Positions 5,563-61,109 of a stretch of DNA of 64,000 nt are shown here, in pieces (position 1 is the stretch's first letter; each line of letters begins with the position of its first letter). The notes under the pieces are model-generated. The model did not search any database and had not been told where the DNA came from. It saw only the letters and a list, made by a program, of their open reading frames with translations. Made by a program: the position numbers and the translations under genes. The stretch comes from a virus (taxonomy: Duplodnaviria; Caudoviricetes), in IMG/VR virus record IMGVR_UViG_3300011008_002712; one strand, 5' to 3'.

Positions 5563-6135
5563 TCATATGCCATAATAAAACAAAATCCTAGGAGAAAGTA
5601 TACTCAAAAAATCTGCCATGCATTCATATGCATAATCTAAAAACATTTGATTAGACAATAAAATCTTTCTTTGAGCTACTCTCACTTTTGATAAATCTCC
5701 AACAAGACGATGGGTAAAATAATCTTTTGGAATAAACATGCTCATGTAAGAATCATTAAAATATCTATATATCTGAAATTCTTTTCCATTACCTCCTATG
5801 CCGCTTGTTTTAGGTTTTCTCATCTGAGAAGCATCAGCATATATAGCAAAAGTGAAATTACTCTTAGTATTACTATGTTTAATGTTTACATGCACAATCT
5901 GTATCTTAATTCTTTCTACTTCTGAAATACAAAATTTTTTGCCATTAGTCCTGTAATCTTTTTTTAGAAAAAGCTTTAATTCATTATAACAATCTCTACA
6001 AATTTTTTTGCCATTGTAAATTTCTTCTTCATTTACAAATGTTGGTGCATAACTTTTTCCATACATGTATTTTGTTGGTTGATTGCATCTAGTACATACA
6101 TCAAAAACTTTTATGATCTCTCTTTTGCTTGGCAT
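5563..6135 (-). CDS. hypothetical protein with N-terminal Zn finger; ends GI*
   Basis: CTRC...CRDC; C-terminus ILFYYGI. Confidence 0.75.
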   Translation of the reverse strand: MPSKREIIKVFDVCTRCNQPTKYMYGKSYAPTFVNEEEIYNGKKICRDCYNELKLFLKKDYRTNGKKFCISEVERIKIQIVHVNIKHSNTKSNFTFAIYADASQMRKPKTSGIGGNGKEFQIYRYFNDSYMSMFIPKDYFTHRLVGDLSKVRVAQRKILLSNQMFLDYAYECMADFLSILSPRILFYYGI

Positions 6136-6170
6136 GTGATAACTCCTTTTTTATTTAATTTTATCACATT

Positions 6171-6542
6171 TCAAACATTATGTACATTACTAAGCAAATA
6201 CTTCTCAGCATTTTTCTTTAATTCGTGTCCTTTGATATACATTAAAATAAAAGGAATTTTTTCCAAAATACTATCATCGTTAGTTAAAGTGACTTTAGTC
6301 TTAATACTTTCATTTAATACATAAAAACAATCTTCAAAAACAGCAAATTCATAATCATTCATTTTGACTATCCGATATGCTTGGCCAAACTTATGATGTA
6401 TCTCTGAGATGTATATGACATAGCATTCTTTTTCTATCAGCATAAATTTAACATCTTCATCATATAAGATAGTAGAAATCTCATGAGTAAGTACGTTCTT
6501 CATGATTATTTTGTCTGTCTCATAAATGACATTGTATTTCAT
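6171..6542 (-). CDS. hypothetical protein
   Basis: Start MKYNVIY after AGGAG. Confidence 0.7.
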   Translation of the reverse strand: MKYNVIYETDKIIMKNVLTHEISTILYDEDVKFMLIEKECYVIYISEIHHKFGQAYRIVKMNDYEFAVFEDCFYVLNESIKTKVTLTNDDSILEKIPFILMYIKGHELKKNAEKYLLSNVHNV

Positions 6543-7056
6543 CAATTGCTCCTTTATTCGTCGCATTCCAAAATTTATAAAATCTTTCTATTTTTTCTAT
6601 GCTCGCATTTAAAGGATAAATATGAATAGCTGCTAACCAGCATTCAATCGTATCCCACCAACTGCTTCCAGAAAAAAATATATCGTCTGCAATCTTCATG
6701 TTGATATCATATTTATTTTTATTCCCTTTAATTTTATCAAAGCAATAATATGCATATTGTTGATCAATGTCAAACAATTTCATGTCTATGCTCTCATACT
6801 TTTTAAACAAATCTACTTGTTTGAAAATATCTTTTGCTATCTCCCAAGATAAACTTGATGAAAAATTTTTTTGTTCCATGAATTCTTTTTGAATAGCATG
6901 TAAAGCAATGATTGTACCATTTTTGTCTGTTCTCATGAATTGTCCACCAATACAGACAACATCATCGTCTATTATCATTTCTTTTAATGAATAAAAATGC
7001 TTGCTTTTTCTAAATCTTATTTTCATAATCCATTTTATTTCCTTTGATTCTATCAA
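6520..7056 (-). CDS. hypothetical protein
   Basis: 178-aa ORF. Confidence 0.7.
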   Translation of the reverse strand: MIESKEIKWIMKIRFRKSKHFYSLKEMIIDDDVVCIGGQFMRTDKNGTIIALHAIQKEFMEQKNFSSSLSWEIAKDIFKQVDLFKKYESIDMKLFDIDQQYAYYCFDKIKGNKNKYDINMKIADDIFFSGSSWWDTIECWLAAIHIYPLNASIEKIERFYKFWNATNKGAIDEIQCHL

Positions 7057-7128
7057 AACAATAATGTGGTCTTAAAATTAAAAAAGACTGTTTTTATGCA
7101 GTCTTTTTTGTTAATCATCATAATCTTA

Positions 7129-7536
7129 TTAAATATATGATCTATATGCACTATCTTCTAAGTCATCTGTAATACTTGCCCAATCTTTTCTGAATTGTTT
7201 AAGATTTGAAAGCAAATTGGAGGTAGCTTCTATTAAAGAATTCAAATTTTCAATAGCTTCATCTCCTGGAGAATATTTTCCATTACCTAAGAGTTAATAT
7301 GCAATTGGTTCTGAAAAATTATCAGTTTCTTTAGCAGCATTACCACATGTAAAATATCTTTCAAAATTTTGTCCATCCAAAATATCATCATATGCTGCTA
7401 ATACTTGTTCATATACAGATACAACTTCTTTTGATTTTCCGTCTAAATCTTCTAAAAAATATTGTAAAGCTTCTTTAGCTTCTTCTGGTACTTCAGCTGC
7501 ACTTTTCTTCTGTAAATGCGATTTGATTGTATTCAT
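7129..7536 (-). pseudogene. acidic hypothetical protein interrupted by in-frame TAA (7294-7296)
   Basis: The 80-aa ORF continues in frame for 54 sense codons (LLGNGKYSPGDEAIENL...AYRSYI*). Confidence 0.6.
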
Positions 7537-7589
7537 ATTTTTTATCTCCTTATATCATTTCTTTCAATGAATAAAAATATTTACTTTTT

Positions 7590-58799: not shown

Positions 58800-59441
58800 T
58801 TAAAATTTATTATCAATAATAAAAACTTCTTCAAATCCTTCTTCTTTTTTAGGAAGAGATTCAAATTTTTTCATTTGCTCAATAACTTCTCTAGGAACAT
58901 AACGGCCATAAACGTCTTCTCCATTGTAAGTATCTACTACTGTTGCAGCTCGTTTTTCTACTCCTCTATAACATTCGTCAACTGTTTTGTTAATGTATAT
59001 GGAGTAAATAGGGATTCTCTTGTTAATTCTTTGTATTTCGGTTTTTCTTTGCTTTGAATTAAAGTAAGTTGCATCAAAAATGATGCCTTTGCAGTTTGAA
59101 AAATCAATAGTATGCAAATAATCTTTTGCATATAATTGATTCTGCACAGACATCTTAGAATCGTCAATATAAGAAATTACTAAATGTTTCGCAAAATAGC
59201 TGTTTATCATAGACTCAATAACAGGATGAACATCTCTATTGAATTTCATGAGATATTCATCCAAAAGTGTCTCAGGTTTGTCTCCATATTTTCTACGTGC
59301 AAGTTCATAACGAATTACGTCTTTACAAATATAAAGAAAATCTTTATTCACAAATGTGCTTGCAATGGTAGACTTTCCAGCACCAGGAAGACCACCAAGA
59401 ATAATTGCGATATTATCAATATTCAGCAATTTATTGTACAT
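58800..59441 (-). CDS. P-loop kinase (polynucleotide-kinase-like, AAA_33)
   Basis: GLPGAGKST, D.IR, IFDAT...R, R...VP..VI. Confidence 0.82.
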   Translation of the reverse strand: MYNKLLNIDNIAIILGGLPGAGKSTIASTFVNKDFLYICKDVIRYELARRKYGDKPETLLDEYLMKFNRDVHPVIESMINSYFAKHLVISYIDDSKMSVQNQLYAKDYLHTIDFSNCKGIIFDATYFNSKQRKTEIQRINKRIPIYSIYINKTVDECYRGVEKRAATVVDTYNGEDVYGRYVPREVIEQMKKFESLPKKEEGFEEVFIIDNKF

Positions 59442-59508
59442 TTGTTTTCACCTCTTATATATTATATCACATATAAAAACAAAAGTACACAACGATTTAC
59501 TTAAAAAT

Positions 59509-60063
59509 TTAACTTGTTGCAATAAAGTCTTGGAACATTTTGTAGTATTTGTTTTTGTCATAATCTTCTTTATTTAGATATTGAGAAAAAGTTTCATAAT
59601 ATGTTTTATTTGTTTTTCCAACATTGTCTATTGATTTCCATGGATGAAAATTTTCATTTTTAAAAAAAAGAATAGCGCCGTAATTCATATACCTTTGGTA
59701 TTCAAAAAATTTATCATCTGGTAATGTCACTTTTAGTTTATAGTGATTGTCAGTTTTTAATAACAAAATTTCTATTTTTTCATCAACGAATAAATCGCAT
59801 TCAATGTATATGTTTTTATCATCAAAATCAAGTGTGTTGCCATCATAATTAAAAATTCCAGAAATGGCTACGTTTTTATCCTTTGAAAATCGTTCTGGTG
59901 TTATGAACATGTCATACTCGTGAATTAAAAAAACGACATTCGATTGTTTTGTTAACGGTTGGATTTTGTTTTTCATAAACATATAGAAAAATTTGCTTAA
60001 CTCATTGTTTATGTAATTGTCTATGAGAAAATCTTTTTCATTTTGATCGAGTTTTAATTTCAT
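59509..60063 (-). CDS. hypothetical protein
   Basis: 184-aa ORF, RBS GAGG. Confidence 0.75.
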   Translation of the reverse strand: MKLKLDQNEKDFLIDNYINNELSKFFYMFMKNKIQPLTKQSNVVFLIHEYDMFITPERFSKDKNVAISGIFNYDGNTLDFDDKNIYIECDLFVDEKIEILLLKTDNHYKLKVTLPDDKFFEYQRYMNYGAILFFKNENFHPWKSIDNVGKTNKTYYETFSQYLNKEDYDKNKYYKMFQDFIATS

Positions 60064-60102
60064 TTTTGTCCTCAGTACGATTTACTCAAAATAAATTTCA
60101 AA

Positions 60103-60753
60103 TTAATACTGCTTTTTATCTGTTTTTACTGCTTTTATAGAATCTAAAAACATTAGATATATGAGTTCTCTTTCTATTACAAACGTCTCATATCTTTTGC
60201 CAAGTTCTTTAAATTTGCTTAATTTTTCGGGAAATTTATTATGTTTGTCAATGTGGGTGAAAATTTGTCGCGGTTTGTACATATCTCTCATTTGATCTTT
60301 TGAAATATATCTTCTTTCGTTTCCACTTATGATAAGGTAATCACATGTTTTTAGCTTTTTTAAATTTGGAATATGTCCATTATTCCAAGTATTGTGTCTT
60401 ATAGCATATAAACATTCTTGTTGAGAAAAACATTTGTCATTAGAAAAAAATTTACAAATAAAATAACTTAATTCATCATCTTTATGTTCTTCAATATATT
60501 TAATAAAATTTTCTTCTGCTGGCCTAATTAAAGATCTTAATCGTTTTTCGATATATTCTTCATATAAACATGCTACACTTCCGGAAAATGAACGTCCCCA
60601 GTCTATGTTATTGATTATGTCACTTATCATGTCTTTATCATCTTTCATAAATTTTTTGATTGCATATTCTGTGTAATGTTTTTTGATAAAATTATTGATG
60701 CTATAACTAAAATCATAAGTATCAAATTTTCTAAAAAAAGCATGTAAGTTCAT
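60103..60753 (-). CDS. hypothetical protein
   Basis: 216-aa ORF. Confidence 0.75.
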   Translation of the reverse strand: MNLHAFFRKFDTYDFSYSINNFIKKHYTEYAIKKFMKDDKDMISDIINNIDWGRSFSGSVACLYEEYIEKRLRSLIRPAEENFIKYIEEHKDDELSYFICKFFSNDKCFSQQECLYAIRHNTWNNGHIPNLKKLKTCDYLIISGNERRYISKDQMRDMYKPRQIFTHIDKHNKFPEKLSKFKELGKRYETFVIERELIYLMFLDSIKAVKTDKKQY

Positions 60754-60755
60754 GT

Positions 60756-61109
60756 TTATAGTCCTTTATACACTAAATCATTGTCAATGCACTTGTTGAC
60801 TAAATTTTCTAATTCATCGAAATAGATAATTTCATCTTCAATTTTGTTATTAATAGTTTTTATGATTTTATTCATCAACTCATTATTAATAACAAATTGC
60901 ATGGGCAACGAATATGATTTTCTACTATTTTTTATGCAAAAAACTTTATAGTGCTTTCCATTTTTCAAGGCTATTTTGCAAGATAAATTTAGATACGTTG
61001 ATTCGTTAAAGATATTGTCACACTCTATGAACATTTGTATTTCATATACAACATAATTATGTTTATTGCTTTTTACGCAGCAATCATCTTCCCATTCTTC
61101 ATATTTCAT
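60756..61109 (-). CDS. hypothetical protein, GL-tail group
   Basis: Ends NDLVYKGL*; promoter at ~61130-61162. Confidence 0.8.
   Translation of the reverse strand: MKYEEWEDDCCVKSNKHNYVVYEIQMFIECDNIFNESTYLNLSCKIALKNGKHYKVFCIKNSRKSYSLPMQFVINNELMNKIIKTINNKIEDEIIYFDELENLVNKCIDNDLVYKGL

Follow-up and report, generated by a model that had tools for sequence, protein, structure and literature searches.

Why do so many proteins of a single virus, which otherwise have little in common, end in the same two residues? The question is raised by a stretch of 64,000 nucleotides (the window) from the Caudoviricetes record IMGVR_UViG_3300011008_002712, where a sequence-only reading had listed 17 frames that end in Gly-Leu directly before the stop codon. 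The ending was proposed to be a C-terminal address on mostly unrelated proteins, and a capsid-loading signal, a docking peptide, a degron and a site exposing Gly for conjugation were considered as its possible uses. We find that the Gly-Leu end is a portable, terminus-anchored, clade-specific and transferable motif on hypervariable accessory proteins. It probably serves as a docking handle for some partner.

The window covers positions 255998-319997, reverse strand, of a 416,024-base virus record with 29.7% G+C. Genes were called with a codon-score script of our own, not with Prodigal, and the script was applied alike to all relatives; for the 416-kb genome it yields 541 genes (87.5% coding). 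No sign of an alternative genetic code was found in this genome, where all three stops are in use. The closest cultured relative is Bacillus phage G (Donellivirus; NC_023719.1; PMC12484599), which has a syntenic core with ClpX at a comparable place, and whose tail sheath homologue is 41% identical. The full-text literature yielded no description of a Gly-Leu tag, in a search whose scope left subscription journals mostly outside.

Enrichment and sequence of the Gly-Leu ending

All listed endings, including the variants Gly-Met at 15493 and Gly-Ile at 5563, are present in the window, but two of the 17 Gly-Leu frames (18111 and 16030) are broken in this assembly. Sixteen of 109 called genes in the window end in Gly-Leu (p ~2e-21); the gene caller did not accept the 17th ending (18282-18431) as a separate gene. 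A genome-wide count of terminal dipeptides, the check proposed in the sequence-only reading, reveals a strong excess: 32 of the 541 genes bear the ending, as opposed to 1.73 expected from the rate of internal Gly-Leu pairs (Poisson p 3e-29). About two of the 32 are expected to be chance, and two genes outside the window, whose paralogues are tail-less, are the likely cases. The excess is confined to the exact terminus, as Gly-Leu occurs merely zero to three times at each offset of 1-11 residues upstream.

The ending closes an amphipathic helix and follows the consensus [IVL]-x-x-x-G-[L>M,I]-stop. Ile, Val or Leu occupies position -5 in 28 of 32 tails (background 22%, p 4e-15), compared with 25% for internal Gly-Leu dipeptides, and a hydrophobic periodicity of ~3.6 residues reaches back to about -25 (157 tagged proteins from three genomes). 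The hydrophobic, helix-like stretch noticed at the outset is thus borne out, and the motif is longer than had been stated. The residue preceding Gly is hydrophobic in 59% of tails, most commonly Phe, Tyr or Ile; in the 416-kb genome it is often polar (Glu, Asn, Gln, His).

The tail is written with all four Gly codons, six Leu codons (across the clade) and all three stops, and its codons differ synonymously among orthologues and paralogues. Because the Gly, Leu and stop codons vary synonymously, the constraint lies on residues rather than on DNA, as had been supposed. Compared with a close relative, the bodies of tagged genes differ by 57 non-synonymous and 71 synonymous codon changes, and the Gly-Leu codons, a small sample, by none and one, respectively. 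A mild excess of purine-ending Gly codons and some ATGA overlaps might hint at a signal in the nucleotides themselves, be it a ribosome-binding site, a recombination site or translational coupling. However, Gly codon use is near that of internal Gly-Leu pairs, with GGG in mild excess, the next start is overlapped by just five of 38 tagged genes, and away from gene ends the same DNA words turn up 80 times. Together with the synonymous variation and the selection on residue -5, these observations largely refute a nucleotide-level explanation and leave it highly improbable. No promoter or upstream motif specific to tagged operons was detected; sigma-A-like sites are equally frequent in untagged operons.

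A portable tag or a helix cap

The clearest case of a transferred tail is a UDG-like protein. Its label is supported by a weak Pfam match (E 0.011) and by 25 homologues. Within this family the tail forms an extension of variable length beyond the final helix of the enzyme. Four proteins carry it, whereas four phage orthologues (45-51% identity) and all 18 distant homologues lack it. In a tree built from the enzyme core without the tail, the four proteins with a tail group together as one clade (97/94) within a set of tail-less phage proteins. On this phylogeny, the tag on the UDG-like enzyme was gained once and then retained.

Two further architectures point in the same direction. A 520-aa protein (aa, amino acids) consists of three helical repeats, of which only the last ends in Gly-Leu or Gly-Ile, whereas the internal repeats have other endings; the same holds for six of eight non-identical orthologues. 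The 5563 gene belongs to a zinc-finger family in which 15 of 16 members terminate in G-[LIMY], and the motif is kept at the terminus although its spacing to the last conserved Cys differs by four residues. The tag is thus borne by at least three different architectures. The single gain, the restriction to the last repeat and the anchoring to the terminus across indels support the proposed address on unrelated bodies. Loss of Gly-Leu among orthologues, named beforehand as evidence against an address, was found in part, since some orthologues are tail-less.

The tagged proteins are accessory: 33 of 38 in the 416-kb genome are ORFans and one is core. Searches of the tagged proteins against Pfam, PHROGs, ESM Atlas, Foldseek and VIA returned no assignable family, and the best VIA match (Z 6.6 at 4.5 A root-mean-square deviation) reflects a common sheet-plus-helix arrangement. 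With the tails removed, 157 tagged proteins fall into 139 clusters with no shared profile detected, in agreement with the initial impression that the bodies lack evident similarity. Profiles of the bodies performed across genomes no better than shuffled or reversed controls (area under the curve, AUC, ~0.5), though such tests are weak at this divergence. An apparent resemblance of tagged bodies to the 5563-family profile (AUC 0.65) was rejected, as it vanished against the same kinds of control.

Alternatively, the tail may need no partner at all. In the Schellman motif, a common C'-Gly helix cap, hydrophobic residues stand four before and one after Gly (PMC4515027), and the tail has the same sequence pattern: a helix, Gly and hydrophobic residues at -4 and +1 from it. 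Most tagged proteins might then be one hugely expanded and diverged family of a beta-sheet-plus-helix fold, whose last helix ends in a structural cap. Strings similar to the motif indeed occur internally 60 times, and small members share a beta-rich N-terminal half and a helical C-terminal third. The 5563 model has a beta-then-helix layout. In the predicted models of both the 5563 and the 520-aa protein, the tail helix is continuous and ends three residues before the terminus; fold searches with these two structures gave no clear match, and small members were modelled with low confidence.

In view of the Schellman-like motif, the continuous tail helix and the shared beta-then-helix trend, many small members may be one diverged family. 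For the UDG-like and 520-aa proteins, descent from one fold is clearly false. One family cannot cover the whole set, because it leaves unexplained the gain by an unrelated UDG-type fold with a variable linker and the tag on the last of three repeats, and because the motif is ~100-fold denser at termini than internally, which a generic structural motif does not predict. In addition, the anchoring follows the terminus and not the fold, and the bodies lack order-dependent similarity, within the power of the tests mentioned above. A cap without a partner is therefore rather unlikely as the full explanation. The two readings are compatible, as the cap may be the very shape that a partner recognises.

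The tag is restricted to one clade of megaphages

The ending recurs in relatives of the 416-kb phage. A complete 504-kb genome encodes 81 Gly-Leu endings among 698 genes and in addition ~25 Gly-Phe or Gly-Tyr endings, many in the same arrays. A 281-kb fragment carries 17 Gly-Leu, nine Gly-Ile and seven Gly-Met endings, and a 152-kb fragment eight Gly-Ile, three Gly-Leu and one Gly-Met. The preferred last residue thus shifts between lineages, with Ile prevailing in one fragment and Leu, Phe or Tyr accepted in the 504-kb relative. By contrast, phage G (one Gly-Leu ending among 657 called genes), a 379-kb outgroup genome (one among 404) and a 156-kb outgroup fragment (no Gly-Leu, one Gly-Ile) are tag-negative. 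On a tail-sheath tree the tag-positive phages form one clade (support 100/99); two further clade fragments cover core genes only and are uninformative on the tag. About 40 genes are common to tag-positive phages and missing from the outgroups.

Two other terminal patterns were encountered. A separate family expansion in the 504-kb relative (L036-L049), absent from the 416-kb genome, comprises ~24 paralogues that are 190-270 aa long and share a conserved RPVF...NNKS block at the C-terminus. In an unrelated 350-kb phage (L267-L284), 88 of 504 called genes end in Gly, compared with 39 expected, and no further motif is apparent.

ClpX as a candidate reader

Among the conceivable partners, the phage's own ClpX, working with host ClpP, is the most likely reader of the tag, a tentative assignment that leaves considerable room for others. 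The phage clpX gene lies outside the window (genome position 114987-116192), and ClpX is encoded in the 416-kb genome, in the 504-kb relative and in two fragments from the clade. One of the two comes from the same phage as the tag-rich 281-kb record, which it overlaps at 99.997%; a fifth clade ClpX, from a 65-kb fragment, was included for the ClpX loops only. The clade proteins possess the zf-C4_ClpX and AAA_2 domains, Walker A/B, GYVG and an IGF-type loop, and no phage-encoded ClpP was found in the ClpX-bearing genomes and fragments of the tag clade.

In E. coli ClpX, the residues Thr199, Val202, Arg228 and His230 set C-terminal degron specificity, and in ClpXP these loops contact the terminal Ala-Ala carboxylate of the ssrA tag (PMC7652416). 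The canonical set of Thr199, Val202 and RKH is not conserved in clade ClpX. The RKH loop is replaced in all five proteins, three have Gly or Ala in place of Thr199, and in the 416-kb genome, which has Gly at this site, only Val202 is kept. Moreover, the Asp after GYVGx is lost in 5/5 clade ClpX and kept in 73/73 other viral ClpX. Unlike the tag clade, phage G and the 379-kb outgroup, both tag-negative and near-complete, encode a canonical ClpX adjoining their own ClpP. In the clpX gene of the 379-kb outgroup (L144/L145, 340427-342121) an interruption, probably an intron, falls exactly on the GYVG pore loop.

A phage tmRNA (L306, genome 240720-241050; L305 in the 504-kb relative) is encoded among tagged genes. 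It was rejected as the writer of Gly-Leu, because its encoded tag ends in the canonical Ala-Ala. Clade ClpX looks ill-suited to read this Ala-Ala tag and for that reason would have other clients. Given the altered degron loops, the canonical outgroup proteins and a tmRNA that still writes Ala-Ala, a retuned ClpX makes a coherent partner for the Gly-Leu end.

How might such a partnership work? The last 6-8 residues of the tail would be the docking handle, a helix end closed by Gly plus the carboxylate of the terminal Leu, and the altered pore loops or the zinc-binding domain of ClpX would bind it. The retained IGF loop would attach ClpX hexamers to host ClpP. If the tail is a degron, the tagged accessory proteins would be turned over quickly; if the tagged proteins are adaptors in the manner of SspB, their variable bodies would bind host targets and tether these to the unfoldase. 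In its most elaborate form, the retuned ClpX and host ClpP would constitute a targeted-proteolysis platform programmed by 40-120 hypervariable adaptors that dock via the Gly-Leu end. This scenario is unlikely as it stands; if true, it would be the bacterial-virus counterpart of the F-box/BC-box adaptor arrays of large eukaryotic viruses.

Known Clp substrates and adaptors provide partial parallels. In the ssrA degron, too, a two-residue terminus with free carboxylate is the conserved core (PMC7652416), and here a ClpX with changed degron-reading loops is encoded in the same genomes. However, ssrA presents Ala-Ala on a disordered tail, whereas G-[LIM] follows a helix and is genetically encoded on full-length proteins. 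SspB tethers to the ClpX N-domain by its C-terminus (PMC9963277) and combines a folded body with a short C-terminal segment, as proposed here, and a cognate ClpX with zinc-binding domain, ATPase motifs and IGF loop is at hand. SspB differs in its disordered linker and in lacking a Gly-Leu end; the UDG-like extension varies in length, but the helix is continuous in two models. Phages do modulate Clp proteases: SPO1 Gp53 (PMC6873191) is described as a single adaptor-like protein of ClpCP. The literature search turned up no phage-encoded ClpX accompanied by a library of dozens of adaptors.

Several observations weigh against ClpX as the reader of a docking handle. The change in ClpX and the tag arose on one branch, which they share with ~40 other clade-specific genes, and because this is a single evolutionary event, the link is circumstantial and lacks independent co-occurrence. 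Orphan ClpX is common in large phages (only four other viral ClpX have ClpP within 3 kb), and RK[HNT] is also missing in 22 of the 73 other viral ClpX. An unrelated phage with an RKH-altered ClpX has no comparable tag, merely an unstructured excess of terminal Gly. Furthermore, the terminal residue is tolerant (Leu, Ile, Met, Phe or Tyr), some orthologues inside tag-rich phages lack the tag, and the tail helix of the 520-aa model is confidently folded (predicted local distance difference test, pLDDT, ~90), unlike the disordered tails of ssrA and SspB. A complex prediction with two ClpX copies and a 32-residue tail scored 0.00; performed without controls, it counts neither for nor against.

Other candidate partners

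Judged by this analysis, capsid loading is the strongest alternative to ClpX, though a less likely one. A hypervariable anti-defence payload would dock on the prohead scaffold via the tail and be packaged and injected. The best functional precedent are the T4 proteins Ip1-3, which share no homology save a packaging leader and each block a different GmrSD nuclease (PMC12373910, PMC3012670). Like the tagged proteins, T-even Ip1-3 are small, hypervariable accessory proteins with a terminal address alone in common, and the T-even capsid targeting peptide can carry foreign proteins (PMC12373910, PMC3012670). The tagged proteins, small ORFans that evolve fast, have a slightly more basic character than the untagged ones, and the gain of a tag by an enzyme fits the status of cargo. 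On the other hand, the basic bias may come from AT-rich codons, and a candidate head or scaffold partner is not among the identified proteins. The T4 signal is an N-terminal leader on ~ten reported proteins, whereas the tag is C-terminal and marks 38 to ~120 proteins per genome, far more cargo types than the Ips.

The IGF/IGL loops of ClpX and ClpA dock in ClpP. A tail that mimics such a loop might occupy hydrophobic pockets on host ClpP and inhibit the protease, activate it or serve as a tether, consistent with the frequent hydrophobic residue before Gly and with the last residues accepted in the 504-kb relative. Such mimicry is nevertheless very unlikely: in the 416-kb genome the residue before Gly is often polar, the known docking loops are internal and not terminal helices, and the preferred last residue varies by lineage.

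Another phage or host hub, either a clade-specific protein or a membrane surface bound by the amphipathic helix, could also read the tag, and several of the ~40 clade-specific genes have no family. Yet these genes contain no peptide-binding, protease or ligase Pfam domain; in a Pfam scan of ~110 genes common with the 504-kb relative and absent from phage G, no PDZ, TPR, JAB or protease family was found. For membrane binding an exact terminal Gly-Leu would presumably be unneeded, and on balance a hub of either kind seems improbable. Two local proteins suggested as hubs fare no better, as the tag-rich 281-kb fragment yielded no match to the AAA ATPase at 4177, and DUF2828 has no match in the complete 504-kb genome with its 81 tags. 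Exposure of Gly for conjugation, as in the ubiquitin-like systems of the Atg8, Bil or CBASS type, requires an E1 enzyme (ThiF, PF00899), which was not detected in the 416-kb genome or three others; a control profile matched in 12 of 14 genomes, and a host-encoded enzyme could still act.

Overall, the tag works like a shared terminal address, comparable to the T4 capsid targeting peptide, ssrA and the SspB tail, yet without the defining sequence features of each.

Tagged genes of the window and neighbouring loci

The tagged genes of the window are compiled in Table 1. The 16030/16305 duplicate pair consists of paralogues, as initially proposed, even though the 16030 copy is frameshifted. The tandem array at 16030-16607 (-) comprises two copies here, one of them frameshifted, versus three intact copies in the close strain (L119). 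The label "SprT-like" for one tagged protein is unsupported, because HExxH occurs in none of the tagged proteins of the genome.

Table 1. Genes with a Gly-Leu or variant ending in the window (window coordinates).
Feature	Position	Strand	Basis
190-aa protein; N-terminal Cys4 zinc finger, beta-sheet, long C-terminal helix; ends Gly-Ile	5563..6135	-	model and family
217-aa tagged protein; no known family, no HExxH	7590..8243	-	
88-aa tagged protein; Gly-Met variant	15493..15759	-	
83-aa tagged protein; tail codons synonymously changed versus close relative	15761..16012	-	
Paralogue of 16305; frameshifted in this assembly in an A-run near the 5' end; downstream frame ends Gly-Leu	16030..16300	-	
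100-aa tagged protein; three intact tandem copies in close relative	16305..16607	-	
UDG-superfamily-like protein, 213 aa; tag an optional extension past the last enzyme helix	16612..17253	-	
110-116-aa tagged protein	17764..18114	+	
106-codon tagged gene; internal TGA at 18255-18257 where close relative reads TGG; intact in that relative	18111..18431	+	
~90-aa tagged protein	18428..18706	+	
151-159-aa tagged protein; Gly-Leu kept in orthologue at 27% identity	28961..29440	+	
122-aa tagged protein	29437..29805	+	
520-aa protein; three helical repeats, Gly-Leu on the last only	33180..34742	+	
114-aa tagged protein; one tagged paralogue elsewhere in genome	46206..46550	+	
79-aa tagged protein; first of three coupled genes	50844..51083	+	
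88-aa tagged protein	51080..51346	+	
88-aa tagged protein	51343..51609	+	
114-aa tagged protein; tagged homologue in 504-kb relative	55636..55980	+	
117-aa tagged protein	60756..61109	-	

The DUF2828/vWA gene (window 30896-32410, -) and the 520-aa gene are divergently oriented, and two relatives have kept this layout. A conserved pair of AAA and DUF2201 vWA-metallopeptidase genes (L013:435-3116, -) is also found in phage G. Two adjacent genes of the window, 57555-58061 (-) and 58055-58399 (-), carry an FVTNSS-type N-terminal tag, which recurs around a radical SAM/SPASM gene in another part of the genome and in two relatives; by their sequences, these genes may represent a further tag system, N-terminal in this case. 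Two regions of genes that the 504-kb relative also has (L012:14750-19120, -; L015:1263-4492, +) give Pfam matches, assigned by region and not by gene, to PNKP ligase, Hen1, NADAR and PARP, which suggest functions in RNA repair and ADP-ribose counter-defence. Finally, an OmpM-like gene combining SLH with a Gram-negative porin (L014:4187-5431, +) suggests a Negativicutes host and possibly has a role in surface conversion.

Significance

In these megaphages ~7-17% of genes are tagged, and the identity of the reader would therefore frame dozens of ORFans per genome. Candidate effectors of uncultured phages can also be listed simply by looking for the tag. Should the capsid read it, the tag would label an extensive anti-defence payload destined for injection; should ClpX be the reader, the clade would offer a new route of host takeover, as well as an orthogonal degron and unfoldase for synthetic biology.

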